DNA of 64,000 nt from an uncultured virus (IMG/VR IMGVR_UViG_3300017776_000001) (lineage: Duplodnaviria; Heunggongvirae; Uroviricota; Caudoviricetes). Position numbers and translations under genes: made by a program. Where the stretch lies: positions 1-64,000 of IMG/VR virus record IMGVR_UViG_3300017776_000001; one strand, written 5' to 3'. Under the pieces are notes generated by a model that was not told the origin of the DNA, made no database searches, and saw only the letters and a program-made list of their open reading frames with translations. Position 1 is the first letter of the stretch; the number at the start of each line of letters is the position of its first letter. Shown here piece by piece: positions 20,359 to 63,186 of the stretch.

Positions 20359-20360
20359 TT

Positions 20361-20549
20361 TTATCTCCTGTTTTGTCTTTGCTTCATCTTTTCGTTTTCG
20401 TCTTTAAGATGTTGTACTAAGAGACTCGTATAGATATCTCTTTCCCATGGTAACATATTTTCCAATTCTGATAATGAATACTTATGATGTTGCATTAATT
20501 GAAAGTTTGTTTGATAGTATGTGTTTATACTGTCATGAGAAAGAGCCAC
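20361..20549 (-). CDS. 51: Baseplate hub assembly catalyst gp51
   Basis: YYQTNFQLMQHHKYSLSELENMLPWERDIY. Confidence 0.9.
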   Translation of the reverse strand: MALSHDSINTYYQTNFQLMQHHKYSLSELENMLPWERDIYTSLLVQHLKDENEKMKQRQNRR

Positions 20550-21259: not shown

Positions 21260-21284
21260 AATATAGTTCTCCTATTATATAATA

Positions 21285-22693: not shown

Positions 22694-22701
22694 AATACTA
22701 T

Positions 22702-23139
22702 TTATGACTTTACTAACTCATCTTCTGTAAGAATTCTAAAATTAAATTTCCTGTCTTTACACCACTCTTCTGCAGCTTTAAATTTTGCTTGGTTCACTGC
22801 ATAGGTTTTGATTTCTGTAAGATATCGTTTAGTTCTACGTTTAGGTTTTTTGGGGGGTGATAGTTGACCTTTAGGTTTGACTTCTATAATCTCACGTATG
22901 ATTTGACCTTTTGCATTTTGATATTTGATATAGAAGTCAGGAAAGTATCTGTGGACTCTCTTATCTACAGGCGAACGGTATGGTATGATAACCTCTTCAG
23001 AGTTCCATTCTATAATTTTATCATTGTTATCCAAGTAGACCATGAATCGTCTTTCCCATAAAGAACGATAGATTATCTTCGTTGGGTCACCTTTATATTT
23101 TTTATAGTTCTTTGGTTTGAACCTTCCACTGTATGACAT
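22702..23139 (-). CDS. 4: Head completion nuclease gp4
   Basis: YSGRFKPKNYKKYKGDPTKIIYRSLWE, HRYFPDF, IEVKP, VNQAKFKAA; start moved to MSYSG. Confidence 0.95.
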   Translation of the reverse strand: MSYSGRFKPKNYKKYKGDPTKIIYRSLWERRFMVYLDNNDKIIEWNSEEVIIPYRSPVDKRVHRYFPDFYIKYQNAKGQIIREIIEVKPKGQLSPPKKPKRRTKRYLTEIKTYAVNQAKFKAAEEWCKDRKFNFRILTEDELVKS

Positions 23140-23167
23140 AAATAGATGTATAGTTAAGGTATTTATA
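23137..23167. promoter_or_regulatory. Pair of oppositely oriented T4-type late promoters
   Basis: CATAAATA on + (23137-23144) toward gp48; TATAAATA on - (23160-23167) toward gp4. Confidence 0.65.
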
Positions 23168-23168
23168 T

Positions 23169-40200: not shown

Positions 40201-43200
40201 GTGGTTTAGAACCCGATGGTCAATTTGAGTTATCAGATGCAGTTGACTTTAGACCAGTAGCAGACCAGTTAATTGGTCTCTCAGGTTTTCCAACACAAGA
40301 CATAGACCCAACAGATTCAAATCTAGTAGACATTAGTGATAGTTCTACAGGTATTACTGCAGCTCCATTTAAATATGAGAGTACAGGATTTACTGCATCT
40401 GCATTAGATGTACCAGTAACGAATAGTGCAATTCAAGGTGACATTACTTTCTATGTACCTAGAATCGATAAAGTATTCTTACATAAAGCTGGTAACTTCC
40501 AAGTAAATAGTGGTGTACCATCTTTATCACCAACTAAACCAAAGGTCATGGATGATGCAATTGAAATGTTTGAATTGTTCATTCCACCGTTTACTGCAAA
40601 CCTAAAGAAAATTAAGATTAAGAGTATCGACCATAGAAGATATACCATGAAGGATATCGGTAGGATACAAAACAGAGTTGCAAACCTAGAAAGACTTACA
40701 ACACTATCTCTCTTAGAAAGAGATACACAAAACATGCAAATCCAAGATGCAGACGGATTCGATAGATTCAAATCAGGATTTGTTGTTGATTCATTTAAGG
40801 GTCATGGTATCGGTGATGTTTCTCATCCTGATTATGGTGTTGCAATTGATACTAAACTAGGTACACTTAGACCACAAGTTTACACTTCATTCTTTGACTT
40901 AGGTCTAAATGAAGCTTCATCATCTAGTTATCAGAAGACTGGTGATTTACTAACACTACCATATTCAGAAAAGACATATGTAAATCAAGATAAAGCATCT
41001 AGAACAATTAATGTCAACCCATATAACGTATTTGCATTTATCGGTAACCTTAAGTTATCTCCAAATTCAGATGTATGGAATGATTCAGAAAGATTACCCG
41101 AAGTTAGAATTAACAGAGAAGGTAACTATGATGCAGTATTAGCTGAGAATACAAACTCACTAGGTACTGTATGGAATGCATGGCAAACAACATGGGTCGG
41201 TGAACCTAATGTTGTAAATGAAGAAGTTGTTTCATCAAGGCCTGGTTCATGGTCAGGAGACCCAGCACAAGGTGGTGAATGGATACCTGGCGAAGATGTT
41301 ACAAGAGTTATTACAGAAACACCCGAGACACAAACAAGAAATGGTGTTAAGACTACAGTAGTCGAAGATTTTGTAGAAGACAGAAGAGACAGGATTGTAA
41401 GTGTAAGTATTATACCTTTCATCCGTTCTAGAAGAGTAGAACTAGATGCACAAAACTTACAACCGAATAGAAAACACTATGTGTTCTTTGATGGTATTAA
41501 CGTCAATGCACATGTTACACCTTTCAGTTCAACATTCGGAGACGGTGGTGCAACTGCAAAAGGAACTGTAATTAAATCAAACAGAAATGGAAGACTTCGT
41601 GCATATTTTGATATACCAAATAACAATGCACAAAGATTCCCAACAGGTCAAAGAGAAGTCAAGATAACTGCAAGTGAAAGTAATCTTTCTAATCCACCTT
41701 CTTATGCAAGTAATGTATATCAGGCACAAGGATTATTGCAGTCATCACAAACAGAAATTATATCTACAAAGAATGGTAGAGTTATTAGAGAAAATCTAAC
41801 AGCAGGTAGAAGTATTGAAAGGTCAGGAGAGTTCTTTAACAGAACTGCAACCGATTTGGATGCACCTCCATTACCACCAGTACCACCAGCTGAAGACCCA
41901 CCATTACCACCTCCACCACCTCCGCCGCCTGACCCACCACCACCAATCGTGACACCACCAGTGGATGAGGCACCAATTATTCCAAATAATATATTTGATG
42001 TCCCCGATGTATGGGAGTTCAGAGGATGGCAAGACCCATTAGCAGAATCTTTCTTAGTAGAGAGTCGTGGTGGTATGTTTATAACATCTATAGATTTATA
42101 CTTTAATACTAAAGATGAAAGTTTACCAGTAACAGTTGAAATTAGAAACATGGTAAATGGTTACCCTGGCCAGATAGTACTTCCGTATTCAGAAGTAACT
42201 AAAAATCCTAATCTGATAAACATCTCAGAGGATGGTTCAGTTGCAACTACATTTACATTTGATTCACCAGTATATGTTGAAGAAGGACAAGAATATTGTT
42301 TCGTAGTATTATCAAACTCTAACAAGTATGAAACATTCATTTCAACTATGGGTGAAGAAGACATTAAAACTGGTCAATTGATATCAGGACAACCGTACGC
42401 AGGTTCATTATTCAAATCACAAAATGCATCAACATGGACTGCAGAACAAACACAAGACCTTAAGTTCCATATGAAAACTGCAAAGTTTGATACAACAAAA
42501 ATTGCAAACATTATATTTGAGAATGGTGATTTAGAAAATGATACACTACAAGTTAACCCTATTCAAACAACATCAGGTTCAAGTAATGTTAAGGTTTATC
42601 ATTATACACATGGTATGTATGATGCAACATCAAATGTAACTTTATCAGGTATACAAGGTGATAGAGAAAACGGTGTAACAAATATAGGTGAAGGAAGTGC
42701 AACATTATTATCAGGGGCATTACCTTCAAATAGTACTTACAATGATATTGCAACTACATCTAGTGGAAGTGGAACTGGGTGTAAACTCAAGTTCGTAGTA
42801 GCTGGTGGTGCAATATCAGATATAGAAATTCAAGATTGTGGTAGTAATTATAGTGTCTCAGATACTTTAACTGTAACAAACTTGGGTAGTACAACTAATA
42901 GTATACAGATTAATATTGATGCTGTAACAGATACTATCGGTGGAGTACCAATTAATCTATTAAATAAAACACATACTGCAATTGCAAATCCAAAACTAGA
43001 CAGTTACGAAGTTGTTGTAGATTGGGATTCAACAGATATTGACGGTGCATCTGCACCATCTGTGTCATCATCTGTGGGTGGAGGAACATCAGTAATAGGT
43101 ACAAGAAACTATTACTTTGATTCAATCCACACAATGATTCCATCATTGACATTGAGAGATACAAGATTAACATGTAACTTACAATTGTGTGCAATGAATT

Positions 43201-43862
43201 CACCCGAAAGTTATGTGAAAGGAACACCGTATGCAATGAGAAACTCTTCTCAATATGTTACACTTAATGACAATGTATTCTTAGACGCACCAAGTATTGT
43301 TGCATCAAGAATTAATGAAGTAAATCAATCATCATTATCAGGTACAAGGTCATTTAAAACACAAGTATCATACATCACTTTGAATGAAAACGTATCACCA
43401 GTAATTGATATGTCTTCAATGGGTGTTATCTGTAATGCAAACAGAGTAAATGGTATGAGTTCAACTAATGAGCAAACAATCACCCCAACAGAAAATGCAG
43501 AAGGTGAGATGAATGCAATGACATATGTAACTAAGAGAGTTAACTTAAAAGAACCAGCATCTTCAATTAAGGTTATGTTAGATGGATTTAGTCCATTAAG
43601 TACAGACCTAAAAGTTATGTACAAGGTTCTATTGAATGACGAATCTACTCCTTTTGATGATGTAGGATACAACTTCTTTAACACCGATGGTTCACCTGAT
43701 ATTATCGTAGATAAAGATGGTAAGAATTTTAAAGAGTACGAATATAGTATAGAAGACTTACCCGAGTTTACATCTTTTGCAATTAAGATTGTAGGACAAG
43801 CACATAATACTTCTGTAGTTCCATTAGTGTCTAACCTTAGAGCAATAGCGTTAGCAACGTAA
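37236..43862 (+). CDS. Large baseplate/fibre-attachment structural protein (VrlC/DUF4815-like)
   Basis: LNVTPYHDDF...VLF...QARELTQSQSILQNQ, APGADR, RRYTMKDIG, DPLAESF, GSLFKSQNASTW. Confidence 0.88.
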   Translation: MTEKTDLNVTPYHDDFSEDKKFHKVLFRAGRPLQARELTQSQSILQNQVERFAGHIFEEGSLVDGAQTDVVYDYGYVKVDNVNPNSVGGSVSTYLDSFKDKYIQGKTSGAVARVYLTVAETSDDPTTLVVKYLAGGTDSSNSFYFDANEELEEVNVDENGNPTSASNNNEFKVQTIDKSPVGRSSVASITEGVVYLRGFFVKVDAAQLILEKYSGQPSYRVGLDISEQLISSADDDSLLDNAQGTTNENAPGADRFKIQTTFVKKLLDTTDDTNFIELYRVVNGTTELKVSSANYSNFENSLARRTYDQSGDFTVRQFIPTLREHLQENDNLGYYTASQGGDVGKFVLQVSPGKAYVRGHEIDKIGTTPISLPKARTVAELSGTSTSARLGNYLKVTNIHSVPEFGNEGGEDSLKPNHLIKLYDSTVSLGTEPSSGQIGFARVRNFDELESVDVDNNKVLDPTSKHALYLFDIKMFTKIGITALSNASPINVGDRVDDTVTGAHGIVADVDYSNDFILVHDVQGTFVVGNTIQSTGSTNTTYNNAIASVRNYNIDRVRGVSQTPSNASREKFTGNVIVDGVKVLSGTVSLTAGSDTVVGFGTRFQDELKEGDVIVNPIDGGEHIVQTVGGATSVTLTANVGSGKTFQGNVTRRRVKLYDQNQTANIFAFSRDFIKSFTPDSCQVRRQTTVEVASQAFTISAGSGNTFPAITASNVNQFVEMAVIEQSSGSPTYLNGDVLDPRDFFTSLSGDSSTLSFGSLATANNGAILKVSYTVNIGSPVQRDKTLREGKMLKVGSPSSQNSFYGTGYDDKEISLGLADVFKIRGIYEAEDGSNPLPPSATIDQLNAGIPFVDKEIIKGQTTGARAKIINYAGDDNTTYFYYLSSTQFNSSESVVGETSTATGTLSNVSSGSKEIKNRYFFDDGQRDGFYDYAKLQLKPGEPAPNNSILIVFDYFTHGAGNFFDVSSYDNQVSYQEIPKYIPNKVDLGGLEPDGQFELSDAVDFRPVADQLIGLSGFPTQDIDPTDSNLVDISDSSTGITAAPFKYESTGFTASALDVPVTNSAIQGDITFYVPRIDKVFLHKAGNFQVNSGVPSLSPTKPKVMDDAIEMFELFIPPFTANLKKIKIKSIDHRRYTMKDIGRIQNRVANLERLTTLSLLERDTQNMQIQDADGFDRFKSGFVVDSFKGHGIGDVSHPDYGVAIDTKLGTLRPQVYTSFFDLGLNEASSSSYQKTGDLLTLPYSEKTYVNQDKASRTINVNPYNVFAFIGNLKLSPNSDVWNDSERLPEVRINREGNYDAVLAENTNSLGTVWNAWQTTWVGEPNVVNEEVVSSRPGSWSGDPAQGGEWIPGEDVTRVITETPETQTRNGVKTTVVEDFVEDRRDRIVSVSIIPFIRSRRVELDAQNLQPNRKHYVFFDGINVNAHVTPFSSTFGDGGATAKGTVIKSNRNGRLRAYFDIPNNNAQRFPTGQREVKITASESNLSNPPSYASNVYQAQGLLQSSQTEIISTKNGRVIRENLTAGRSIERSGEFFNRTATDLDAPPLPPVPPAEDPPLPPPPPPPPDPPPPIVTPPVDEAPIIPNNIFDVPDVWEFRGWQDPLAESFLVESRGGMFITSIDLYFNTKDESLPVTVEIRNMVNGYPGQIVLPYSEVTKNPNLINISEDGSVATTFTFDSPVYVEEGQEYCFVVLSNSNKYETFISTMGEEDIKTGQLISGQPYAGSLFKSQNASTWTAEQTQDLKFHMKTAKFDTTKIANIIFENGDLENDTLQVNPIQTTSGSSNVKVYHYTHGMYDATSNVTLSGIQGDRENGVTNIGEGSATLLSGALPSNSTYNDIATTSSGSGTGCKLKFVVAGGAISDIEIQDCGSNYSVSDTLTVTNLGSTTNSIQINIDAVTDTIGGVPINLLNKTHTAIANPKLDSYEVVVDWDSTDIDGASAPSVSSSVGGGTSVIGTRNYYFDSIHTMIPSLTLRDTRLTCNLQLCAMNSPESYVKGTPYAMRNSSQYVTLNDNVFLDAPSIVASRINEVNQSSLSGTRSFKTQVSYITLNENVSPVIDMSSMGVICNANRVNGMSSTNEQTITPTENAEGEMNAMTYVTKRVNLKEPASSIKVMLDGFSPLSTDLKVMYKVLLNDESTPFDDVGYNFFNTDGSPDIIVDKDGKNFKEYEYSIEDLPEFTSFAIKIVGQAHNTSVVPLVSNLRAIALAT

Positions 43863-44083
43863 TGAGTACAATGAAAGAACTAGCAAGAGTACAAGGAGAA
43901 CAACATCTTTTTAGAGATGAAGAATCAGGTGCTATAATAAGTAATGATAGTCAAACACTTGCAATTTATAAGAAAAGAAAAACAGTGTTTCAAAATCAAA
44001 TAAATGAAATAAATACTCTTAGAGAAGAGATAAATGAAATTAAAGAATTTTTGAGGAATATAACAAATGGCCAAAACAGTTAG
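43862..44083 (+). CDS. Small conserved coiled-coil protein
   Basis: VQG...LFRD..SGAII...EINEIKE.L pattern usual after the VrlC-like gene. Confidence 0.75.
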   Translation: MSTMKELARVQGEQHLFRDEESGAIISNDSQTLAIYKKRKTVFQNQINEINTLREEINEIKEFLRNITNGQNS

Positions 44084-46820
44084 TCAACATAGTACACTCG
44101 AAGAGTGGAGACAGTCGTATAACGAACTAGCATCAGATGTTGGGGATATTGGTGGTTTACGTACTCAAGATAAAACTACACTTGTTGATGCAGTAAACGA
44201 TTTAAGAGATAGAGAATTCTTTTTCCAAGGATTTATTTACACTGCAACTGGTGGTCAAACAGTATTCGAAGGTGCAGACAGTTCATCCGACCAAAATGAA
44301 TTAGAGTTTAGAGACCATAGATTCCTCGTATTCAAAAACGGTGAATTACAACAACTCTCAACAGATTTCACAATATCAAATGTAAATGCAAACGGTAATC
44401 ACACTAGAGTTACACTTACATCGGGTGCAACTAATAATGATATTATCAGAGTGGTTGCATTTACAGGTTCATTCCTTGATGTCGCAGGTCAAGCTGCAGT
44501 ACAAACGTTTTGGACTGAAACATTAGAGAACACAATTTACAATAACAACGATAGTGGTGTTATTATTAATGGTGACATCGGTTCAGTTGTCACAGAATTA
44601 CAATCAGGTTACGTAGTTCAGATAGAAGGTAAAACATTCATCAATGGTGATGTAGACCTTGATACAGGTCATACCCTATCTGCACCTACACTTACAGACA
44701 ACACACTATCAATTAATCAAGGAAACGTCACAGGGGGTGTCACAGGAGACTTCAGTGGTGATTTCAACGTAGGTAATTTAGATGTCGGTGGTGGTTTCAA
44801 TTCAACAGGAGTATCGATTACATCTACTGGTAACATCAATGCAAACGGTAGTGCAGAGATTGATGGAAACCTAAACGTAGATGGTTTAACAACATTAGAT
44901 GGAACAACAATTGATGGTAATCTAGACCTTAATGGTAATCTAGATGCATCAGGAACAGGACACATCGGTGGTAACTTTGATGTCAATACTGATAAGTTTA
45001 CAGTTGCATCAGCAACAGGTAACACTGCAGTAGCAGGAAGATTAGATGTAACTGGTAATCTAGATGTTGATGGTGCAACAACTACAGATGGAATACACAA
45101 CGTAGGTTCTTTAAATCAAGATGGAAGTGTGGACATTTCAACTACACTAGAGGTACATGGAGCTGTAGATTTTAACTCTACTCTAACTGTAGATGGTCAA
45201 TCTAATCTCAATGGTCATGTAAACTTGGGTAATGCATCTACTGATACAGTTACATTCAATGGTGTACTTGATAGTGACATCGTTCCCGATGGAGATAGTT
45301 CAAGAGACTTAGGTACAAACAGTGTTAGATTTTCAAATGCATATATCGATACTACAACAGGTAACCTAGTCGGTAATGCAAGTACAGCTACAACTTTAGA
45401 AACTGCAAGAGATATAGGTGGTGTATCCTTTGACGGAAGTGCAAGTATCAATTTGCCTGGCGTCAACCAATCAGGTAATCAGGACACATCAGGAAACGCT
45501 GCAAGTGCAACTGTATTAGAGACTGCAAGAAATATATCAGGTGTATCTTTTGATGGAAGTGCAGACATAGAATTAAATACTTCTCACATTGATGAAAACG
45601 TTGCAAACCTTTATTTTACAAATGCAAGAGCAGATGCAAGAATAACAAATGCTATTGATACAGACAATACTTTTGCAGATGCATCAAACACTTTAGTTCC
45701 TTCACAGTTAGCAGTCAAATCATACGTTGATTCACAATTAGATTTACAAGACGAACTAAGTGAGATGAGTGGAGACTCAAGTGATATTACAGAACACGCA
45801 ACAACAAATTTATTCTTTACAAATGCAAGAGCAGATGCAAGGATAACAGCTGCAAGTGTTGGAGATTTAAGTGATGTGGACATTACAGGTGTTGCAGCTG
45901 GTCAAGCACTTACATGGAGTGCAAGTAATAATAGGTTCGAACCCACAACACTTGGTAGTTCTACCGACAGTTTTGCAGAAGGGTCATCAAACCTTTACTT
46001 CACAAATGAAAGAGCAAGAGATGCTGTTGCAAGTTTAATAGTAAATTCAAACAGTGTTAGCAATGGTCTTAATGCAACATATAACGATAATGATAATGCT
46101 GAAGGTACATTAGAACTCGATGTTGACCCCGAATATATCAGAGACACAACTGCATCATTCATCACTGGTGGAACACATAGTGGTATCTCATTTACTCACG
46201 ATGATAATAATGATAAATTAAATGCATCTATATCAATAAGTGGTTTTGACACAAATGATTTAAGCGAAGGTGAAACTAATCTTTACTTTACAAATGCAAG
46301 AGCAGATGCTAGAATCGCAGCTGCTAATACAAGTGACTTGTCAGAAGACCCCGATGCAACTGGTTCAAGTGGTACAATGTACTTCACAGACGAAAGAGCT
46401 CGTGACGCTGCAGCTGCAATGATTACTAGTGGTACACACAGTAACATTACAGTCAATTATAATGACACTGCAAATACACTTTCGTTCTCTGCAGCTGCAC
46501 AATACGCAGACTCAGATGCAAGAGGAGCTTTATCAGGTGGGCCAGGTATTGATTACAATACATCAACTGGTAAAATTTCTGCAGACCTAAATGCAAGTGG
46601 TGGATTAGAGTTCCATGCAGCTGGTGATGGTGGTGAGATAAGATTGAAATCTTCAGTGGCAGGTAATGGTCTTGCACATAGTAGTGGTGTTCTCTCTATA
46701 AATACAAGGAAAGGTGTAAAAATAGATTCAGATTTTGTTGAATCAGATTATGAAGTAGTTTCAACAGCACCCTCAAGTGTCAGTGGTACAAACGATGGAC
46801 ATTTGTGGTATGTGGTGTAA
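44067..46820 (+). CDS. Tail fibre protein
   Basis: N-terminal TLEEWR...N anchor; beta-helix GNL.VDG repeats; GNA.TAT.LETAR repeats; LYFTNARA repeats; ends APSSVSGTNDGHLWYVV. Confidence 0.85.
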   Translation: MAKTVSQHSTLEEWRQSYNELASDVGDIGGLRTQDKTTLVDAVNDLRDREFFFQGFIYTATGGQTVFEGADSSSDQNELEFRDHRFLVFKNGELQQLSTDFTISNVNANGNHTRVTLTSGATNNDIIRVVAFTGSFLDVAGQAAVQTFWTETLENTIYNNNDSGVIINGDIGSVVTELQSGYVVQIEGKTFINGDVDLDTGHTLSAPTLTDNTLSINQGNVTGGVTGDFSGDFNVGNLDVGGGFNSTGVSITSTGNINANGSAEIDGNLNVDGLTTLDGTTIDGNLDLNGNLDASGTGHIGGNFDVNTDKFTVASATGNTAVAGRLDVTGNLDVDGATTTDGIHNVGSLNQDGSVDISTTLEVHGAVDFNSTLTVDGQSNLNGHVNLGNASTDTVTFNGVLDSDIVPDGDSSRDLGTNSVRFSNAYIDTTTGNLVGNASTATTLETARDIGGVSFDGSASINLPGVNQSGNQDTSGNAASATVLETARNISGVSFDGSADIELNTSHIDENVANLYFTNARADARITNAIDTDNTFADASNTLVPSQLAVKSYVDSQLDLQDELSEMSGDSSDITEHATTNLFFTNARADARITAASVGDLSDVDITGVAAGQALTWSASNNRFEPTTLGSSTDSFAEGSSNLYFTNERARDAVASLIVNSNSVSNGLNATYNDNDNAEGTLELDVDPEYIRDTTASFITGGTHSGISFTHDDNNDKLNASISISGFDTNDLSEGETNLYFTNARADARIAAANTSDLSEDPDATGSSGTMYFTDERARDAAAAMITSGTHSNITVNYNDTANTLSFSAAAQYADSDARGALSGGPGIDYNTSTGKISADLNASGGLEFHAAGDGGEIRLKSSVAGNGLAHSSGVLSINTRKGVKIDSDFVESDYEVVSTAPSSVSGTNDGHLWYVV

Positions 46821-46843: not shown

Positions 46844-49084
46844 ATGTCAAATGAAACATATATTAATACAGGGACTAGTTTTCAACAACCCTTCAATGAT
46901 AGAAGACCTGTACAACAAAGTTACCAATATAACAATCAAGAAAATAGACAGAGACCTGTACAACAAAATTATCAGTACAACAACGTAGAGAATAGACAGA
47001 GACCTGCTAGACAATCGTATCAATACAATAACGTAGAGAACAGACAAAGACCAGCTAGACAGTCATATCAATACAATAACGTAGAGAGCAGACAGAGACC
47101 AACAAGACAGTCTTATCAGTACCATAATAGAGTACAACAAAATACTCAACAAGATTACACTTATCATAATAGGACACAACAACCGAATCAGCAGAACTAT
47201 ACCTATCATAATAGAGTAGATAGACAACGTCCTGTACAACAAAATTATCAGTATCATAATAGAGTAAATAGACAAAGACCTGCTCGACAACCTTACACTT
47301 ATCACAACCGTGTTCAACAAGATACTCAGCAAACTTATCAGTATCATAATAGGATTCCAACCACTACTCAACAAGAATACACTTATCACAATCGTGTTCA
47401 ACAAAATACTCAACAAACGTATGTGTACCATAATAGAATACAAGAAAGCACTCAGCAAAATTATCAGTACAACAACGTAGAGTCAAAACAAAGACCTGTT
47501 AGGAATCAAGCACACCAAAATTACATTCATTACATGCAAGTTTATGGGGGTTCAGGAGATACAGCTGCTATTAAGATGGAAACACCATATGGTCAGGTAA
47601 CTAATACGATACCATCTTTTGAGTTCATGGGGTTTCCAATGCAAGAACAACGTACCGTAAGTGGAAGTCAATATACGTTCCAAGCAAGACAAGCATCGGG
47701 TAATGCACATGAAGGAGACTCATTTAGGGGTGCAATGTTCTTCAGAGGGCCACAGTATAGCTTACAAGGAACTCAGTCACCATACTATGAAGGTGCGGGG
47801 CCACAGGGAAATCATACAAATTATACACAGTGGGAGATGCAAGGATTTTCTTTTGAGGGACAGTTCCAAAGACAATGGACAGGACGTTTAAGATACACAG
47901 GAAAGAATACTAAGTTTGCAGCTCACATGGAAGCTACTGATACTGTGCAAAACCAAACCGTCCCCAATCCTCAAAGACAAGGACATCCTCAGGGACAGGG
48001 GAATCAAGGACTTGAATTTCTTTCTCAACATCCAAATAATTCTCAATATGGAATTACAATTACCAGTGGTCAGTATACAAGATTGGGGTGGGAACATGAG
48101 GGGTCATTTAATTCTCAGGTTCAATCACCAGTTAACCCCCGAAATATTCCTCAAACAGCGTTGAGAAATAAAGGAACCTTTGTAAGAGTGAGACCCCGTG
48201 GTTATGCAAGACAAGAACAATTTACTACAGGTGTTGCTTTAGATTTTGCATCAGTAGCTGCACAAGGTCTTGATTATCAGGTACCTACTGCAAATCTTAA
48301 TGATAAACAACAACCTGCTCAACAAACTTATTCATACCATAATCAATTACCTAGAAGAAGACCCGTTAGAACTCAACGAAACGAAGATTCAGATAGACAA
48401 AGACCAGTAAGAGTACAAACACTTTCATCTGAAACAAAACGTAGACCAACTACAGTACAACAATTACAACGTGTATCTAGACGAAGACCAGTTAGAAATC
48501 AAGTCAATCAGGCTAATGAACAACAAAGAAATATACAACAAACATATCAGTATAATAATATTGTAACTAAACAACGTCCTGTACAACAAACTTATCCATA
48601 TAATAATGTTGAGACTAGACAAAGACCTGTTAGAAATCAAGTTAATGAAGATGTGACTAGACAAAGACCTGCTAGGGTTGCAGTATTACAAAGAGTTTCT
48701 AGACAAAAGAATTTGCAACAAACATATTCTTATCACAATCAGGTTCCTAGAAGAAAATCTGTACAACAGACTTATAGTTATCATAACAGAGTAACAAGAC
48801 AAAAGAATTTACAACAGACTTATAGTTATCATAATCAGGTTCCAAGACGTAGACCAGTACAACAGACTTATAATTATCATAATCAGGTTCCAAGACGTAG
48901 ACCAGTGAGACAACCATTCCCTTCAACAAGACCTATAGGGCCTCTTGCAAAGGTTAAACAAATTTGGATTAATGAAGGTGGAGTGTTAAGAAAAATGGAT
49001 GAAGTGTACTTAAATGATAGTGGAACATTGAAAAAGACTCATCAAAGTGTACCAACTTCTCAATTAACAGACCCGAACACTTAA
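46844..49084 (+). CDS. Mirror-repeat protein A (putative hairpin-stalk adhesin)
   Basis: 13 repeat units (46913-47500), 273 aa core (47501-48319), 13 repeat units (48320-48907), C-terminal KVKQIWINEGG...DEVYLNDSG module. Confidence 0.85.
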   Translation: MSNETYINTGTSFQQPFNDRRPVQQSYQYNNQENRQRPVQQNYQYNNVENRQRPARQSYQYNNVENRQRPARQSYQYNNVESRQRPTRQSYQYHNRVQQNTQQDYTYHNRTQQPNQQNYTYHNRVDRQRPVQQNYQYHNRVNRQRPARQPYTYHNRVQQDTQQTYQYHNRIPTTTQQEYTYHNRVQQNTQQTYVYHNRIQESTQQNYQYNNVESKQRPVRNQAHQNYIHYMQVYGGSGDTAAIKMETPYGQVTNTIPSFEFMGFPMQEQRTVSGSQYTFQARQASGNAHEGDSFRGAMFFRGPQYSLQGTQSPYYEGAGPQGNHTNYTQWEMQGFSFEGQFQRQWTGRLRYTGKNTKFAAHMEATDTVQNQTVPNPQRQGHPQGQGNQGLEFLSQHPNNSQYGITITSGQYTRLGWEHEGSFNSQVQSPVNPRNIPQTALRNKGTFVRVRPRGYARQEQFTTGVALDFASVAAQGLDYQVPTANLNDKQQPAQQTYSYHNQLPRRRPVRTQRNEDSDRQRPVRVQTLSSETKRRPTTVQQLQRVSRRRPVRNQVNQANEQQRNIQQTYQYNNIVTKQRPVQQTYPYNNVETRQRPVRNQVNEDVTRQRPARVAVLQRVSRQKNLQQTYSYHNQVPRRKSVQQTYSYHNRVTRQKNLQQTYSYHNQVPRRRPVQQTYNYHNQVPRRRPVRQPFPSTRPIGPLAKVKQIWINEGGVLRKMDEVYLNDSGTLKKTHQSVPTSQLTDPNT
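46913..48907 (+). repeat. Two coding tandem arrays of 42/48 bp units flanking a unique core
   Basis: Units QQxYxY(H/N)NxxxRxRPV (16 aa) and 14 aa variants. Confidence 0.95.
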
Positions 49085-49102: not shown

Positions 49103-49435
49103 ATGGCAATCATAGCAAACATATTTATAGACCAAGGTACCGATTTCGAAGTTACTATCGATGTCTCTGATACCAGTGACAATATCATAGACTTATCAGG
49201 GTACACTGCCTCTGCACAAATAAGAAAAACATATGGTTCTGAAACCATTGCAGAAACTTTTGGTACATCCATAACTGCATCAACTGGTAAGGTAACACTT
49301 ACTCTTACGGATACTCAAACCACTGGTTTGAAAAGTGGTAGATATGTTTATGATTTAGTAATAACAGATGCCTCAGGAACAAAGACTAGAGTCATTGAGG
49401 GACAAGCAATAATAACACCCGGCGTAACAAGGTAG
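49103..49435 (+). CDS. Virion structural/adaptor protein
   Basis: NIFIDQGTDF, DLSGYTASAQIRK, GRYVYDL, RVIEG...TPGVT. Confidence 0.8.
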   Translation: MAIIANIFIDQGTDFEVTIDVSDTSDNIIDLSGYTASAQIRKTYGSETIAETFGTSITASTGKVTLTLTDTQTTGLKSGRYVYDLVITDASGTKTRVIEGQAIITPGVTR

Positions 49436-49445
49436 GGTTTATAAA

Positions 49446-49697
49446 ATGGCTATAAAAGCAAAGATATCAGGGAACGCAAGTAACGTGACATTAAAATCAA
49501 GACTATTACAATCAACAGGCATTAAAGCAAAGCAAGTTGCAATCGGAGACTCTTCTACTGGAGGAGGTAGTAGTGTAAATTCGATAAGTGATATCGCAGA
49601 CGTGAATGCAACAGAAACCGATAAAGGTTTACTAAACTATAATGCTGAAACAGATAGATGGGAAACCACTACAGTTATTGATGGTGGAACATTCTAG
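49446..49697 (+). CDS. Small fibre-associated protein
   Basis: ISDIADV...LLNYN....W; ends IDGGTF. Confidence 0.7.
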   Translation: MAIKAKISGNASNVTLKSRLLQSTGIKAKQVAIGDSSTGGGSSVNSISDIADVNATETDKGLLNYNAETDRWETTTVIDGGTF

Positions 49698-49846: not shown

Positions 49847-51448
49847 ATGGCAACAGTAATTCAAATTAAAAGGTCTACTGGTAGTGCTAATCCCGCAATT
49901 TCTGATTTAGCAGAAAGTGAATTAGCCTACGTTCAGGATAGGTCAGGAACTGGTGCGAACGCAACTCTCTTCATAGAATCACATGACGGTACAAGTGCAG
50001 TTATTCACGAAATCGGTGGTAAGTACTATACAGACATGTTGGCTGGTTCAACACCAACACCTTCAGACTTCATAGTAGGTAACGGTGCAACAGCTGGTGC
50101 ATCTATTAAGTTGAGAGAAGATTCAGACAACGGAACAAATTTCGTTGCTCTAAAATCACCCGACACATTGGGTTCAAACCTCACATTAACATTACCATCT
50201 TCAGATGGTTCAAACGGACAAGTACTTGGAACCGATGGTTCAGGAGCATTGTCTTTCGTATCAACAACTTCATCAATCGCAGGTGCATCTGATACAGATA
50301 TTTCAGCACCAGCATCAGGACACATTCTTGTCCATGACGGTTCAGACTCATTTGATAACGTAGCAGTTTCAGGTGACGTAACACTTGCATCTAATGGTGC
50401 AATGACAATCGGTTCAGGTGTAGTTGAAAATGGCATGATAGCTGCAGACGCAGTAACAGGTGCTAAAATCGCAGACGACGCTATTGATTCAGAACATCTT
50501 GCAGATGGTTCAATCGATACAGCTCACATTGCAAATGGACAAGTAACATTTGGTAAACTTGCAGCTGCAGCGGTTGTAATCGAATCAGAAGGTATCGGTT
50601 CAAACGATAACGACACAACAATTCCTACTTCAGCGGCAGTAAAAAACTATGTTGATACTAACGTAACAGCACAAGATGTAGACTTTGCTGGTGATTCAGG
50701 AACAGGTGCAGTCGATTTAGATTCACAATCACTTACAATTCAAGGTACAAATAACGAAATTGAAACAAGTGCAAGTGGACAAACTTTAACAGTTGGTCTA
50801 CCTAACGATGTAACTATTTCAAATAACTTAACAGTTTCAGGAAACTTAATATCAGACGATATTACAACTGCAACATTAACAACTTCAGGTAACCTTACAG
50901 TAACAGGTAACTTAAGTGTTAACGGTACAACAACAACTGTTAATTCAACAACAGTATCAATTGCAGACCCAATTTTTGAAATTGGTGATGATAGTTCAGA
51001 TGATAATCTAGACAGAGGTATCAAATTTAAGTACAACTCAGGTGGTACTAAACTTGGGTTCTTTGGTATGGACGATACAGATGCTAAATTTAAGTTTATT
51101 GCAGATGCAACAGACACAAGTTCAGTATTCTCAGGTTCACTAGGTAACGTTGCATTCGGTAATGCCGAAGTAGCAGCTTTATCATTAAGTGGTTCTATCT
51201 CATCATACGCAGGGTCAGCTCCAACAGACGGTCAAATCTTAATTGGTGACACTTCAGGTGGAGTATTCGATGCAGCTACATTGACAGCTGGTGAAGCAAT
51301 AACTATTACTAATGGTGCTGGTGCAATTACACTAGCTGCTGAAGACGCAACTACATCTAATAAAGGTGTTGCATCTTTCTCAAGTAATAACTTCACTGTT
51401 TCAAGTGGTGCTGTAACCGTTACTGCAATTGACGGTGGTACATTTTAA
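49847..51448 (+). CDS. Tail fibre protein
   Basis: MATVIQIKRS...ELAY N-terminus; GNLTVTG...DRGI module; ends IDGGTF. Confidence 0.85.
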   Translation: MATVIQIKRSTGSANPAISDLAESELAYVQDRSGTGANATLFIESHDGTSAVIHEIGGKYYTDMLAGSTPTPSDFIVGNGATAGASIKLREDSDNGTNFVALKSPDTLGSNLTLTLPSSDGSNGQVLGTDGSGALSFVSTTSSIAGASDTDISAPASGHILVHDGSDSFDNVAVSGDVTLASNGAMTIGSGVVENGMIAADAVTGAKIADDAIDSEHLADGSIDTAHIANGQVTFGKLAAAAVVIESEGIGSNDNDTTIPTSAAVKNYVDTNVTAQDVDFAGDSGTGAVDLDSQSLTIQGTNNEIETSASGQTLTVGLPNDVTISNNLTVSGNLISDDITTATLTTSGNLTVTGNLSVNGTTTTVNSTTVSIADPIFEIGDDSSDDNLDRGIKFKYNSGGTKLGFFGMDDTDAKFKFIADATDTSSVFSGSLGNVAFGNAEVAALSLSGSISSYAGSAPTDGQILIGDTSGGVFDAATLTAGEAITITNGAGAITLAAEDATTSNKGVASFSSNNFTVSSGAVTVTAIDGGTF

Positions 51449-51473: not shown

Positions 51474-52298
51474 ATGGCAACAGTAATTCAGTTTAAACGT
51501 TCAGCTACTCAGAACGCTGTTCCTAATACTGGTGATTTATCACTAGGGGAATTAGCTGTAAACACTTATCACGGTAGGTTTTACACTGAGAAGAATGACG
51601 GTTCTGCATCTGTAGTCGAATTAGGTTCAAACCCAACGAGTTTGACACTCAATGATGCTTACTCTTTTCCAACCAGTGATGGTTCGGCAAACCAAGTACT
51701 TAAAACCGATGGAAGTGGTACATTAACATTTGCTAACGCAGGTAATGTGTATTCCACGTTCACATATAGTGTAACAGGAAACCAAACAGTATTTACTGGA
51801 AATGATGACAATGGTAATTCATTATCATATACATCAGGTGGTGAAAACGTATACTTAAACGGTGTTAAGTTGATTGGGGGTGGTACAGATTATACAACTA
51901 CTAACTCAACCACTATCACTTTAACAGAAAACGCAGTAAGTGGAGATACATTAGTAATTAATAATATCTCTAACACTAGTGATTTAGTTGAAGGTAACCA
52001 TACAGAATCATCGTTCACTGCAACGACAGCTGACCAACTTTTACAGTCAGTTTCAACATCAATTAAGAGTATAAGATTTTTTGTGACAGCAACACACGCT
52101 TCAGCAGGAACTCACTCTTGTGATGTTATCATTGCAAATGATGGTACTAATGCATATTATTCACAGTTTGGTGATGTCCATACTGGTAACTCTTTGTTTA
52201 CATTGAGTGTAGATGTTAATTCAGGAAATATGAGATTACTCGTAACTCCTGCTAACACTAATACCACAATAGACACGTTCCAAATTAGACATTCATAA
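51474..52298 (+). CDS. Tail fibre-associated protein
   Basis: MATVIQFKRS...GELAVN N-terminus; FPTSDG..QVLKTDG; C-terminal beta domain shared with the next two genes. Confidence 0.8.
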   Translation: MATVIQFKRSATQNAVPNTGDLSLGELAVNTYHGRFYTEKNDGSASVVELGSNPTSLTLNDAYSFPTSDGSANQVLKTDGSGTLTFANAGNVYSTFTYSVTGNQTVFTGNDDNGNSLSYTSGGENVYLNGVKLIGGGTDYTTTNSTTITLTENAVSGDTLVINNISNTSDLVEGNHTESSFTATTADQLLQSVSTSIKSIRFFVTATHASAGTHSCDVIIANDGTNAYYSQFGDVHTGNSLFTLSVDVNSGNMRLLVTPANTNTTIDTFQIRHS

Positions 52299-53624: not shown

Positions 53625-53960
53625 ATGGCAACAGCAAACTTTACAATCGATTATGGTTTGACAGTTGGTTCATCTGAAGTAATCACATCTAGTGGTAAAG
53701 TAGTGGCAGCTGCAGTATCAACTTTGACAACTGATAATTTAACACAGGGGTCGACAAATCTGTATTTTACAGGTTCACAGTTTAATACATCTTTTGCTTC
53801 TAAAGACACAGACGATTTATCAGAAGGGTCATCAAACCTTTACTTCACAGATACTAGAGCGAGAGGTTCTATATCTTTAGCATCAGGTGAAACCAATTTA
53901 TCTTATAACAGCACAAGTGGTGAACTATCATTACCAACAGTTGATGGAGGTACATTCTAA
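53625..53960 (+). CDS. Small fibre-associated protein
   Basis: TDDLSEGSSNLYFT repeats; ends VDGGTF. Confidence 0.75.
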   Translation: MATANFTIDYGLTVGSSEVITSSGKVVAAAVSTLTTDNLTQGSTNLYFTGSQFNTSFASKDTDDLSEGSSNLYFTDTRARGSISLASGETNLSYNSTSGELSLPTVDGGTF

Positions 53961-56277: not shown

Positions 56278-59200
56278 ATGGCGCAACGAATAAAGAACCC
56301 TACGGGGTGGGTAAACACAACAGGAAGCTGGGTAAAAACATCTCCAACTGAATGGTCGGCAGTAGATTCTATCTATTCAAAGACACCTACTGGGTGGGTA
56401 AAGTCATCAGGACAAATGCCAGCTCAAGTAGTTGCAACAAGACCAGCAGTTGGGACAAGACCTTACAACTTCCAACAATCTTATCAATTCACTGTGCAAC
56501 AGTCGTATCAGTATCATAATAGGGTACAGGCATCTACACAACAGTCATATCAGTATCATAACAGGGTTCAAACAAGTGTTCAACAAGATTACACTTATCA
56601 CAACCGTGTTCAACAAAATACTCAACAGACATATACCTATCATAATAGAGTACAAAGAAGAAGACCAGTACAACAAGCATATACCTATCATAATAGAGTA
56701 CCTAGACGTAGACCAGTACAACAGACTTATAGTTATCACAATCAGGTACCAAGACGTAGACCAGTACAACAGACGTACGTCTATCATAATCAGGTACCAA
56801 GACGTAGACCTACACAACAATCATATCAATACCATAATAGAGTTGGTAGACAACGTGTAGTACAACAGGGTTATACTTATCACAATAGAGGACAAGCTTC
56901 TACCCAACAGACTTACCAGTATCATAACAGAGTTCAAACAAGTACTCAACAACCTTACACTTATCATAATAGGGTACCTAGAAGAAGACCTGTACAACAG
57001 TCGTATCAGTACCATAATAGAGTACAAAGAAGAAGACCTGTTCAACAGACGTATACCTATCATCATAGAATACCAAGACGTAGACCAGTACAACAGGCAT
57101 ACACTTATCACAATAGGATACAAACAAGTACTCAACAGGCATACACTTATCACAATAGGGTACCTAGAAGAAGACCAGTCCAACAGGCATACCAGTACCA
57201 CAATAGGGTGCAGAGAAGAAGACCTGTTCAACAGTCGTATCAGTACCATAATAGAGTACCTAGAAGAAGACCAGTACAACAAGGGTATACTTATCATAAT
57301 AGAGGACAAGCATCAACTCAACAGACTTATCAATATCATAACAGAGTTCAAGCTTCTACTCAACAGAGTTACCAGTATCATAATAGGGTTCAGACTAGTG
57401 TACAACAATCATACCAATACCATAATAGAGTACAGGTAAGTACACAACAGAATTACCAGTACAACAATACTGAATCAAGAAGAAGACCTGTACAACAAAG
57501 TTACCAGTACAACAATCAAGAGTCTAGAAGAAGACCAGTACAACAGGTATACCAGTATCATAATCAGGTACCTAGAAGAAGACCTGTACAACAGACGTAT
57601 ACCTATCATAATCAGGTACCAAGACGTAGACCTGTACAACAAAGTTACCAGTACAATAATCAAGAGACAAGACGTAGACCAGCACAACAGTCTTATACGT
57701 ATCATAATAGACTTCAAGCTAGGTATAGTTACCAACAACCTTATAGTTATCACAATCAGGTACCAAGACGTAGACCTGTGCAACAAGCATACACTTATCA
57801 TAATCAGGTTCCAAGACGTAGACCAGTTCAACAGTCTTATCAGTACAATAATCAAGAGTCAAGACGTAGACCAGTTCAACAGTCTTATCAGTACAATAAT
57901 CAAGAGCCAAGACGTAGACCAACACAACAGTCTTATCAGTTTAACCAACCTACACCTAGAAGAAGACCTGTACAACAAACATACCAGTTTAACCAACCTA
58001 CATCTAGGACAAGACAGACTACAGTAAGGAATAGCGCACACACAGCTTACATCCATTATGGAAATATCTATGGTGGTGGTGGTGATACATCTGTTATTAA
58101 GGTAGAAACTCCATACGGACAAAGAACTTCCTATATACCATCTTTTGAGTTCTCGGGTTTCCCAATGAATGCTCAGAATACAGGTACTGCAAGTCCATTT
58201 GGTTTTGCAGGAAGACCTGATGGAAAAGGACATGAAAGAGATTCCTTTAGAGGAAACATGATGTTCAGAGGGCCTTCGTTACAAATGTCAGGTACACAAT
58301 CACCATTCTTTACTGGTAGTGGCCCACAAAACCAATCAACATCACCGAAGAGTTGGCACTATAGAAGTTACTTTGGTGGACAAAGACAGTGGCAGGGTGT
58401 GTTAAGATTTGTTGGTGCGAACATGGAATTTGGTGCTGATTTCGTTGCAGGGCCAGCTGCTCAATCTGTTCAAAGTATACCTAACCCACAGAGACAAGGT
58501 TCAATACCTATTACAGGACAAGCACCAACTAATTCTCAATATGGTGCAAAAATAACGAGTGGACAGACTGCAACATTTAAATGGTCACAAGATGGTCAGA
58601 TGCAGTCACAATCACCCGGCGGTGGAGGTGGAGGATTCCCACTATTTGTCAGAAACAAAGGTGATGTATTCGTTAGAAGTAGAGATTTGTCTCATGTTCA
58701 CCAAGTAACTTTCAGTAATAGTGCTGGTGTGACATGGCCTCAAGGTCAGATGAACGAGATGCAACAGCCTGGTCAACAGAACCAACCGTACACTTATCAT
58801 AATAGGGTACAAAGACGTAGACCAACACAACAACCGTACACTTATCATAATAGGGTACCTAGAAGAAGACCAGTACAACAGGCATACACTTATCATAATC
58901 AGGTACCTAGAAGAAGACCTGTGCAACAAGCGTACACTTATCATAATCAGGTACCAAGACGTAGACCTGTACAACAAAGTTACCAGTACAACAATCAAGA
59001 GTCTAGAAGAAGACCAGTACAACAAAGTTACCAGTACAATAATACTGAGACTAGGAGAAGACCTGCTAGGTCAGACTATCGAGTCAACCAACCTACTCCT
59101 AGAAGAAGACCAGTACAACAGACGTATACCTATCATAATAGAATACCGAGACGTAGACCAGTGCAACAATCTTATCAGTACAATAATACTGAGACTAGAA

Positions 59201-60426
59201 GAAGACCAGTGCAATCGTCTTATCAGTACAATAATACTGAATCTAGAAGAAGACCAGTTCAACAGACGTATACTTATCATAATAGAATACCAAGACGTAG
59301 ACCTGTACAACAAAGTTATCAGTATCATAATCAGGTACCTAGAAGAAGACCAACTAGAGTACAAACATTACAGAGGGTGTCAAGACAGAGACCAGCAAGA
59401 GTACAAGCTTTACAACGTGTATCAAGACGTAGACCAACAAGAGTACAACAGTTGCAACGTGTCTCTAGACAAAGACCAGCAAGAGTACAGGTTAACATTC
59501 AAGAAACAAGAAGAAGACCAGTACAACAAAGTTACCAGTACAATAATATTGTAACTAGACAACGTCCTGTACAACAAGGTTATCAATATAATAATATTGA
59601 GTCTAGAAGAAGACCAGTGCAACAGGGTTATCAATATAATAATACTGAGACTAGAAGAAGACCAACTAGAGTACAGGTGAACCAACCTTCTCCTAGAAGA
59701 AGACCTGTTCAACAGAGTTATCAGTATAATAGTACTGAGAACAGACAGAGACCAGTACAACAAGGTTATCAGTATAATAATATTGAGACTAGACAACGTC
59801 CTGTACAACAAGGTTACCAGTATAATAATGTTGAGACTAGAAGAAGACCAGCAAGAGTACAACAGTTGCAACGTGTTTCTAGACAAAGACCTGCTAGAGT
59901 TCAGGTAAATATACAAGAAACTAGAAGAAGACCAGCACAGCAAACTTATCAGTACAATAATATTGTAACTAGACAACGTCCAACACAACAGAATTATCAA
60001 TATAATAATACTGAAAATAGACAGAGACCAGTGCAACAAGGTTACCAGTATAATAATACTGAAAACAGACAAAGACCAGTGCAACAGGGTTATCAATATA
60101 ATAATATTGAGTCTAGAAGAAGACCAGTGCAACAGGGTTATCAATATAATAATATTGAGTCTAGACAAAGACCAGCAAGAGTTCAGGTTCTACAGAATGT
60201 AACTAGACAAAGACCTGCTAGAACACAGGTATTGCAGAGAGTTTCAAGACAGAGACCTACTAGGGTACAGGTATTGCAAAGAGTTTCAAGACAGAGACCA
60301 GCACAGTCATCCCGTCAGAAGGTTACAGTTGGTATACAACCATATGCATATCAACAACCGTATAGAAATACAGTTCAGAAATGGGATGGTACAACGTCTT
60401 GGCCTGCACAACCAATATCCTCTTAA
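56278..60426 (+). CDS. Mirror-repeat protein B (putative hairpin-stalk adhesin)
   Basis: Trp-rich N-terminal module, 33 units (56497-58020), 253 aa core (58021-58779) paralogous to that of protein A, 33 units (58780-60303). Confidence 0.85.
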   Translation: MAQRIKNPTGWVNTTGSWVKTSPTEWSAVDSIYSKTPTGWVKSSGQMPAQVVATRPAVGTRPYNFQQSYQFTVQQSYQYHNRVQASTQQSYQYHNRVQTSVQQDYTYHNRVQQNTQQTYTYHNRVQRRRPVQQAYTYHNRVPRRRPVQQTYSYHNQVPRRRPVQQTYVYHNQVPRRRPTQQSYQYHNRVGRQRVVQQGYTYHNRGQASTQQTYQYHNRVQTSTQQPYTYHNRVPRRRPVQQSYQYHNRVQRRRPVQQTYTYHHRIPRRRPVQQAYTYHNRIQTSTQQAYTYHNRVPRRRPVQQAYQYHNRVQRRRPVQQSYQYHNRVPRRRPVQQGYTYHNRGQASTQQTYQYHNRVQASTQQSYQYHNRVQTSVQQSYQYHNRVQVSTQQNYQYNNTESRRRPVQQSYQYNNQESRRRPVQQVYQYHNQVPRRRPVQQTYTYHNQVPRRRPVQQSYQYNNQETRRRPAQQSYTYHNRLQARYSYQQPYSYHNQVPRRRPVQQAYTYHNQVPRRRPVQQSYQYNNQESRRRPVQQSYQYNNQEPRRRPTQQSYQFNQPTPRRRPVQQTYQFNQPTSRTRQTTVRNSAHTAYIHYGNIYGGGGDTSVIKVETPYGQRTSYIPSFEFSGFPMNAQNTGTASPFGFAGRPDGKGHERDSFRGNMMFRGPSLQMSGTQSPFFTGSGPQNQSTSPKSWHYRSYFGGQRQWQGVLRFVGANMEFGADFVAGPAAQSVQSIPNPQRQGSIPITGQAPTNSQYGAKITSGQTATFKWSQDGQMQSQSPGGGGGGFPLFVRNKGDVFVRSRDLSHVHQVTFSNSAGVTWPQGQMNEMQQPGQQNQPYTYHNRVQRRRPTQQPYTYHNRVPRRRPVQQAYTYHNQVPRRRPVQQAYTYHNQVPRRRPVQQSYQYNNQESRRRPVQQSYQYNNTETRRRPARSDYRVNQPTPRRRPVQQTYTYHNRIPRRRPVQQSYQYNNTETRRRPVQSSYQYNNTESRRRPVQQTYTYHNRIPRRRPVQQSYQYHNQVPRRRPTRVQTLQRVSRQRPARVQALQRVSRRRPTRVQQLQRVSRQRPARVQVNIQETRRRPVQQSYQYNNIVTRQRPVQQGYQYNNIESRRRPVQQGYQYNNTETRRRPTRVQVNQPSPRRRPVQQSYQYNSTENRQRPVQQGYQYNNIETRQRPVQQGYQYNNVETRRRPARVQQLQRVSRQRPARVQVNIQETRRRPAQQTYQYNNIVTRQRPTQQNYQYNNTENRQRPVQQGYQYNNTENRQRPVQQGYQYNNIESRRRPVQQGYQYNNIESRQRPARVQVLQNVTRQRPARTQVLQRVSRQRPTRVQVLQRVSRQRPAQSSRQKVTVGIQPYAYQQPYRNTVQKWDGTTSWPAQPISS
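56497..60303 (+). repeat. Two coding tandem arrays of 42/48 bp units flanking a unique core
   Basis: Each arm has 23 16-mers and 10 14-mers = 508 aa. Confidence 0.95.
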
Positions 60427-62496: not shown

Positions 62497-63186
62497 ATGG
62501 AAGTTGTATATCTAGATAAACCCTTTAAGATACAGAAATTCCCCTTAGATAAAATCTATGTCTTAGACGATTGGGTAACATACGAAATCATGTATAACAT
62601 GAGGAGACTAACCTCAAGAACTATATGGGCTCAAAACAATCAGGTAAATAGAAACGGTAAGATACGTCATCTGTTTTGGGGTGCAACATTCTATGAGGGC
62701 AAAGATAAAAAAATTAGAGACCATACTTATCATATGCAAGACACCTATCTTATCAGATATCTAGATTGGAAACTTCAATCAGAGTTTGGTTTTAGATGGG
62801 AAAAATTTCAGTATGCTGGTATGAATGGTCAGACCACTGGTCTTCAAGGGACTATACACGAAGATAGTTCTCCTGAAAATACAACTAATATATCTTTCTT
62901 ATGGTACAACACTGAGTATTGGGAAAAAGAATGGGGTGGCCCACTTAAATTTTATAACGAAGAAGCAAAACATATAGATGGTTATAAAGAAGAGTATTTA
63001 AAACATCAGATTGCACAGGTTGATTATAAACCAAATAGATTACTAATGTTTGATGGGAGTATACCACACAATGCAGATGCTCCAAATGATGCATGTGAAT
63101 ATGCATGTAGACAGTCTCTAGTTATACGAGGTGATGCATGTCGACTAGAGAATGAATTAGATTATTATGCCAACGATAGAATTTAA
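62497..63186 (+). CDS. 2OG-Fe(II) oxygenase (prolyl-hydroxylase-like)
   Basis: HED (HxD), WEKEWGGPLKF, PNRLLMFDGSIPH, RQSLV. Confidence 0.9.
   Translation: MEVVYLDKPFKIQKFPLDKIYVLDDWVTYEIMYNMRRLTSRTIWAQNNQVNRNGKIRHLFWGATFYEGKDKKIRDHTYHMQDTYLIRYLDWKLQSEFGFRWEKFQYAGMNGQTTGLQGTIHEDSSPENTTNISFLWYNTEYWEKEWGGPLKFYNEEAKHIDGYKEEYLKHQIAQVDYKPNRLLMFDGSIPHNADAPNDACEYACRQSLVIRGDACRLENELDYYANDRI

Follow-up and report, generated by a model that had tools for sequence, protein, structure and literature searches.

Mirror-coded repeat arms in two putative tail-fibre proteins of an uncultured marine T4-like phage

In trimer-of-hairpins proteins, such as the six-helix bundles of class I fusion proteins and the inverted coiled coil of P22 gp26, the N-terminal and C-terminal repeats of a single chain pack antiparallel within a trimer and the positions of the repeats encode specificity. 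Triple beta-spiral shafts, such as those of adenovirus fibre and reovirus sigma1, are parallel and consist of 15-residue tandem repeats with a turn-forming residue in each. Domain D10 of T4 gp37 is composed of residues 811-881 and 1010-1026, and the chain leaves it for the needle beyond and returns (PMC6957217); the needle measures about 150 by 25 Å, with the His residues of its three chains aligned on the axis (PMC6957217, PMC3004832). Here we describe gene A (46844..49084, + strand), which is found in a window of 64,000 nucleotides (nt), i.e., the whole stretch of DNA that was analysed (positions 1 to 64,000 of IMG/VR record IMGVR_UViG_3300017776_000001), and its longer paralogue, gene B. 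Each encodes a protein in which two arms of short repeat units mirror each other across a central core, and we propose that the chain of A may run out along a stalk, form a distal domain and run back. The mirror code itself is a confirmed observation and is statistically strong.

Protein A consists of the following parts, where aa stands for amino acids:

46844..49084, + strand: gene A, an open reading frame of 746 aa for the short, mirror-coded, putative fold-back protein
46844..46909, + strand: N-terminal flank, aa 1-22, with a degenerate part-unit at its end (QQPFNDRRP, aa 14-22); 22/22 residues identical in 5/5 orthologues
46910..47497, + strand: N-arm, aa 23-218, parsed into 13 units, NNNNbbHHbbbbN
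47498..48316, + strand: core or putative tip domain, aa 219-491, the most variable region, 43% identical to the core of B
48317..48904, + strand: C-arm, aa 492-687, parsed into 13 units, HeeeeNNeeHHHH
48905..49081, + strand: C-terminal domain, aa 688-746, consisting of a part-unit (VRQPFPSTRP) and then a conserved domain of about 50 aa; a candidate virion-attachment end

The arms were cut into units by a dynamic-programming parse, and the units fall into four classes. The H unit has 16 aa and reads VQQ-x-Y-x-Y-H-N...RRRP, and the N unit, also of 16 aa, shares this frame but has N-N, lacks His and mostly carries Glu at position 11. The b unit (14 aa) is H-like, with the final five residues replaced by three non-basic ones, i.e., an H unit minus its C-terminal Arg cluster, and the e unit (14 aa) is N-like, with the first seven residues reduced to five, i.e., an N unit minus its N-terminal QQ-x-Y-x-Y part. 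His is found at position 8 in 174/174 H and b units and in 0/170 N and e units, a separation that is partly true by class definition; the H and b units also have Tyr at position 7 and Asn at position 9, with His at position 9 in 5/101 H units. Read outward from the core, the units run NbbbbHHbbNNNN in the N-arm and HeeeeNNeeHHHH in the C-arm, so that N always stands against H and b against e (13/13 complementary). Partners share their length (16:16 or 14:14) and have opposite His states. The two arms are equal, at 196 aa and 13 units each, and their strings are read without gaps. When the unit order of the C-arm was shuffled, 13/13 was reached in 7 of 200,000 shuffles, for a composition that permits 36,036 distinct orders. 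The run lengths of the unit types also match exactly, and 13 units can be divided into five runs in 495 ways. An earlier note on this DNA, made from its letters, had read the arms as NNNNbbHHbbbbN and, reversed, HHHHeeNNeeeeH, with 13/13 complementarity and 196 aa in each arm, which the parse reproduced; the arms that it had placed at 46913-47500 and 48320-48907 differ from the parsed ones only in a unit frame offset by one residue, and the echo that it had noticed between the flanks is present as QQPFNDRRP (aa 14-22) and RQPFPSTRP (aa 689-697). The DNA of gene A contains 0 inverted repeats. The mirror is thus a property of the protein and not of the nucleic acid, and a DNA or RNA palindrome as its cause was rejected.

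The same architecture is found at a different length and unit order in B, which lies 7 kb downstream of A:

56278..60426, + strand: gene B, an open reading frame of 1382 aa for the long paralogue of the same architecture by the parse
56494..58017, + strand: N-arm, aa 73-580, parsed into 33 units, 508 aa
58018..58776, + strand: core or putative tip domain, aa 581-833, homologous to the core of A by BLASTP
58777..60300, + strand: C-arm, aa 834-1341, parsed into 33 units, 508 aa, the mirror complement of the N-arm

By the labels of the parser, 32 of the 33 pairs of B are complementary. The exception, which is shared with the orthologue L004, joins two odd units of 16 aa, one with His but no Arg cluster and the other free of His, a pair that still agrees with the code in both attributes (length and His state). 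For the three B-type proteins, none of 200,000 shuffles was as complementary as the real order, 22-26 of 33 being the best counts obtained; the run lengths match exactly, and 33 units can be divided into 12 runs in 129,024,480 ways. In two b units of B, at pairs 9 and 18 counted from the outer end, unit positions 4 and 11 are occupied by Gly, and both of these units stand opposite the e subtype that ends in ...NIQETRRRP. Homology between the cores of A and B, the lack of which would have refuted the reading of the earlier note, is significant in pairwise alignment by BLASTP (119/276 identical, 43%, E 8e-66), and all the core motifs listed in the earlier note (YIHY..YGG.GDT..IK.ETPYGQ, IPSFEF.GFPM, DSFRG.M.FRGP, GTQSP, QRQW.G.LR, PNPQRQG, NSQYG..ITSGQ and RNKG) are found in that alignment. 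W/G-rich motifs spaced about 10-15 residues apart were also seen by eye in the N-terminal domain of B (56278-56493) and the C-terminal domain of A (48905-49081). A relationship between these domains would mean that A docks by one chain end and B by the other, but BLASTP between them gave no alignment at E up to 100 and the resemblance is unsupported.

Nine full-length proteins were parsed, and their ungapped, core-outward counts of complementary pairs are as follows:

A: 13/13, arms of 196/196 aa
L002, A-type orthologue: 13/13, arms of 194/194 aa
P0002: 11/11, 2 unpartnered units
P0003: 6/8, 5 unpartnered units
P0004: 9/12, 1 unpartnered unit
P0005: 8/11, 2 unpartnered units
B: 32/33, arms of 508/508 aa
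L004, B-type orthologue: 32/33, arms of 508/508 aa
L008, B-type orthologue: 33/33, arms of 504/504 aa

For L002, 20 of 200,000 unit-order shuffles reach the observed 13/13. The unit changes between orthologues with equal arms are all two-sided (8 two-sided and 0 one-sided). A and L002 differ in 1 of 13 pairs, pair 6 being H:N in one and b:e in the other, while B and L008 differ in 7 of 33 pairs (3, 4, 5, 6, 7, 9 and 10), each on both arms; two of these seven are inverted relative to the usual polarity, with e on the N-arm side and b on the C-arm side. A comparison made by eye between two different proteins, the N-arm of P0005 and the C-arm of its close partial relative P0006, also gives 13/13 complementary units with one swapped e:b pair. 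When gaps are allowed, 165/165 pairs of all nine proteins are complementary with 14 unpartnered units, a result that flatters the rule as the alignment was optimised for complementarity. Based on the covariation, the N-arm and C-arm very probably pair in antiparallel orientation.

Selection acts on the arms as well as on their order. The ratio of nonsynonymous to synonymous substitutions (dN/dS), calculated by the Nei-Gojobori method between orthologues, ranges from 0.05 to 0.21 in the arms at synonymous divergences (dS) of 0.6-2.2; it is 0.054 for aa 23-130 of the A N-arm compared with L002 and 0.10 for the B N-arm compared with L004. Judged by these ratios, the arms are under purifying selection and their residues themselves, not merely their composition, are conserved. 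The suggestion of the earlier note that the rule is kept by selection at another length and unit order is thereby borne out, with 1 A-type and 7 B-type changes on both sides, as is its suggestion of diverged tips. Among the A orthologues, identity is 100% in the N-terminal 22 aa (5/5) and 90-93% in the C-terminal 59 aa, i.e., 90-100% in the termini, and falls to 47-58% in the core, the most variable part; among the B orthologues it is 88-94% in the termini and 74-75% in the core. By sequence identity, both A and B have conserved attachment-type ends and a variable domain, as receptor-binding proteins have. This pattern agrees with a fold-back protein, in which both ends would be docked together and the middle would be exposed at the far end.

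We propose that the chain of A would run out along a stalk, make a distal domain of about 270 residues and run back, with the N-arm and C-arm antiparallel and in register, unit against unit, such that one pair would form one level of the stalk. In an antiparallel pair, the piece missing from b (the Arg cluster) and the piece missing from e (the Gln/Tyr motif) would oppose each other, so the core contact is likely to be that of the Arg cluster with QQ-x-Y-x-Y; this facing of the missing pieces is a check of internal consistency and hints that it may be the main contact. Each H:N pair would then have two Arg-cluster/Gln-Tyr clamps and each b:e pair one. Both conserved chain ends would meet at the proximal end, where the N-terminal flank of A would lie beside the C-terminal domain and the two would attach the protein, probably a trimer like other phage fibres, to the virion; the fast-evolving core would be the distal, host-facing tip. 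B would be the same device with 33 levels instead of 13. As an extended strand spans 0.33 nm per residue, the arms would be 65 nm (A) and 168 nm (B) long if their strands are extended. The rods of roughly 65 and 170 nm suggested in the earlier note presuppose such full extension. For the gp37 needle, our own arithmetic (128 residues out and back over about 15 nm) gives approximately 0.23 nm per residue, at which the arms would be about 45 nm (A) and 117 nm (B); compact units would make them much shorter. For the full model, i.e., an intramolecular hairpin that forms a trimeric virion fibre with a receptor-binding tip, we estimate a probability of roughly 0.6.

Several points weigh against this model. 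The unit classes were set after the sequences had been seen; their objective features are the length of 14 or 16, the His at position 8 and the Y-x-Y. In 4 of the 9 full-length relatives (P0002-P0005), unit numbers differ between the arms, which may result from collapsed near-identical repeats in short-read assemblies or may represent real variants; P0002 resembles the L002 protein minus two outer N units. If the unequal-arm variants are real and functional, strict pairing is not required. AlphaFold2 gave an unusable model for the whole of A (6 sequences), with a mean predicted local distance difference test score (pLDDT) of 27.1, and for the A core (12 sequences) an all-beta model at unusable confidence (mean pLDDT of 35.6); the C-terminal domain of A was modelled as two short strands with a pLDDT below 40. 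The core has no recognisable receptor-binding fold, and A and B are putative virion parts. Moreover, the code cannot separate pairing within a chain from pairing between chains. Antiparallel pairing of different chains, the N-arm of one with the C-arm of another, would satisfy the mirror code equally well. Its product would not be a hairpin that ends in a distal tip but a symmetric, two-ended rod with the cores in its centre, or else a polymer or lattice of chains joined head to tail. We consider this unlikely, because the core is the fastest-evolving part and the termini are the most conserved, a pattern that fits one attachment end and one exposed tip, and because equal arms in one chain would allow a closed hairpin without strain; phage fibres are also polar, parallel trimers (PMC3004832).

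The arms are, furthermore, extremely basic, which is unusual for a fibre and would also suit the binding of nucleic acid. Net charges are +16 and +32 for the arms of A (isoelectric point, pI, of 10.4 for the whole protein, with 81 Arg) and +79 and +92 for those of B (whole protein +186, pI of 11.5, 211 Arg). A and B could accordingly be viewed as Arg/Gln/Tyr-rich proteins that bind nucleic acid or act inside the capsid or the host, with the pairing of the arms merely organising them, and neither matches any fibre family. Part of the C-arm of B (59680-60309, B aa 1135-1344) has a match below the cut-off to Pfam PF08017 Fibrinogen_BP (E 8.1e-10, 38 bits, cut-off of 50), a streptococcal adhesin with 16-residue repeats. 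Both are Arg/Gln-rich tandem repeats, and the match, which A lacks, is driven by repeat composition and probably does not reflect homology. Such an internal role appears less probable still than pairing between chains, given that both genes are inside a tail-fibre block, that a gene for an LtfC-like protein directly follows A, and that a variable core with conserved ends is the usual pattern of receptor-binding proteins. Least credible to us is that the arms make no contact, each being a parallel homotrimeric shaft beside a central knob, and that their mirror order is an accident of duplication. The period of 14-16 residues is indeed near the 15-residue repeat of triple beta-spirals, but the shuffle tests, the 8 two-sided and 0 one-sided unit changes, the exactly equal arm lengths in five proteins and the lack of an inverted DNA repeat all speak against it. 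To the best of our knowledge, no duplication mechanism yields a mirrored complementary order. The fold-back stalk is the reading that we prefer.

The DNA of the window belongs to an uncultured, T4-like marine myophage. The nearest isolates, as judged by the first 1000 aa of its DUF4815 baseplate-type protein, are Methylophilales phage Melnitz (35% identity) and Synechococcus phage S-RIM8 (32.5%). Genes A and B are both found inside a tail-fibre/baseplate block, in which the genes at 44067-46820, 49847-51448 and 53960-56263 have tail-fibre or structural PHROG matches. Two further genes near A are:

37236-43862, upstream of gene A: DUF4815 baseplate-type protein, 2208 aa, by Pfam and PHROG
49103-49435, + strand, directly downstream of gene A: small LtfC-like beta-sandwich protein, 110 aa, by Pfam PF23926 and PHROG 3304

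The match of 49103-49435 to Pfam PF23926 (E 1.1e-5, 26.3 bits) is below the cut-off of 27, and that to PHROG 3304, 'L-shaped tail fiber protein assembly', has an E of 4.2e-23; the protein may be a docking or assembly partner of A. The DUF4815 protein contains a stretch of about 40 residues, mostly proline, at about 41.8-42.0 kb. Three proteins of the fibre block, 49446-49697 (83 aa), 49847-51448 (533 aa) and 53625-53960 (111 aa), end in D-G-G-T-F, which may be a shared C-terminal docking or processing motif. The adjacent proteins 49847-51448 and 51474-52298 have near-identical first ten residues (MATVIQ-x-KRS), which suggests that distinct distal parts are joined to a common module for N-terminal attachment. 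Located 2 kb downstream of B, 62497-63186 encodes a 2OG-Fe(II) oxygenase (PF13640, E 2.6e-6), which is labelled 'DNA endonuclease V' in PHROGs (phrog_274). A minus-strand gene block at 17620-23175, with reversed GC and AT skew, lies within the otherwise plus-strand window.

The assembly of the A and B genes in the window looks sound. Identical A and B proteins are found on a second record of 151 kb, and a Logan contig of 2539 nt from another sample spans 46844-48855 with 3 differing letters and no gaps. Contig joints with sides of 21-33 letters were not used, as such joints often come from repeats or other organisms. Each of 18 runs from seawater and viral metagenomes contained at least 95% of the sampled words of gene A. 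Small parts of gene A were also found at a depth of 2 in two libraries labelled as metatranscriptomes, X19 (probably DNA) and X20 (one 151-nt contig), and these are not evidence of transcription.

The A/B family is very small and is found on metagenomic contigs only, with no isolate. A search with the A core returned 6 proteins among 5.8 billion clusters, and a profile of both cores, compared with 1.84 billion representatives, matched 9 proteins with an E of 0.001 or less, 8 of which are fragments or relatives; P0012 (2034 aa, E 7e-9, 7 stretches) was rejected on inspection as an unrelated repeat protein. Scans of IMG/VR and JGI metagenomes yielded further loci with full A-type and B-type genes, and an additional metagenome scan gave no further relatives. 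No Pfam family matches A, and the cores have no match in Pfam or PHROGs. At loose thresholds, the cores and termini gave PHROG 13729 only, a family of unknown function that is also the sole PHROG match of A and covers aa 702-736 of its C-terminal domain (profile positions 14-48 of 190, E 4.1e-7). The core profile had 0 matches at E up to 1 among all PDB chains, and a collection of 50,697 phage records had no match by megablast (4 kb), by tblastn of the A core or by tblastn of the C-terminal 59 aa. In the ESM Atlas, the best score obtained with the core was 0.82 (recognition 1173), which is too low to be useful. Among proteins of 760-2419 aa, 0 of 2427 candidates matched the B core. Compared with shorter proteins, the B N-arm had 8 matches among 8000 scored candidates, which are from the same family plus P0014 (143 aa, a weak match with an E of 1.3e-4), and no different tip on this stalk was found among these 8000. 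The literature searched, mostly abstracts, contains no description of the A/B family or of a mirror-coded fibre. A and B most likely represent a type of phage fibre whose design, as deduced from their sequences, is absent from the libraries and literature searched.

If the arms pair as the code implies, A and B would be modular fibres of set length that are assembled from four kinds of 14- or 16-residue units, with a pairing rule that can be read from sequence alone and is backed by covariation, a type of evidence that one usually has for RNA helices and coiled coils alone. They would also offer a rigid beta-type rod that lends itself to design, a receptor-binding tip domain of a new kind and a way to study host recognition in abundant, uncultured marine T4-like phages, and Arg/Gln/Tyr-rich repeats of this sort are not to be dismissed as low-complexity or disordered. 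As a tentative extension that we regard as somewhat doubtful, the stalk may belong to a new fold class in which a two-bit unit code (same length, opposite His state) sets both register and length, much like base pairing in an RNA hairpin, and which evolves by insertion, deletion and swap of matched unit pairs, as the 13 levels of A, the 33 levels of B and the 8 two-sided swaps might illustrate. In a trimer, exactly three His per level could then be arranged round the axis, giving as many as 33 sites for metal or hydrogen bonds, stacked like rungs along a rod of more than 100 nm.

Compared with the known systems, trimer-of-hairpins proteins share with the proposed structure of A the antiparallel packing of N-terminal and C-terminal repeats, but they are built of alpha-helical heptads, whereas Pro recurs at intervals of 14-16 residues in the A and B units, alongside alternating patterns of beta type, and the arms have no predicted helix (at low confidence). 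Triple beta-spirals have short tandem repeats of about 15 residues, as A has, but they need no second arm and would leave the mirrored C-arm unexplained, and A has no sequence match to their families (Pfam, PDB profile). T4 gp37 is the nearest analogue. The chain of its needle, like that proposed for A, leaves a proximal domain, reaches a receptor-binding tip and returns antiparallel in a thin trimeric rod, and this out-and-back topology of D10 is a precedent that supports the fold-back reading of A, whose gene, like that of gp37, lies among the tail-fibre genes of a T4-like phage. A is nevertheless unrelated to gp37 in sequence and is not a member of its family, with no similarity to the gp37/gp12 collar or needle families or to solved chains by Pfam, PDB profile or tblastn of phage records. 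In gp37, His-x-His motifs coordinate axial iron ions, while the A and B units contain no H-x-H and have Y-x-Y-H-N with one His per level. The paired span is 196 residues per arm in A and 508 in B, compared with roughly 64 in gp37 by our arithmetic. A and B are further distinguished by discrete units of four classes and a pairing rule, neither of which is described for gp37, and by a tip that would be a domain of about 270 residues carried at the end of the stalk.

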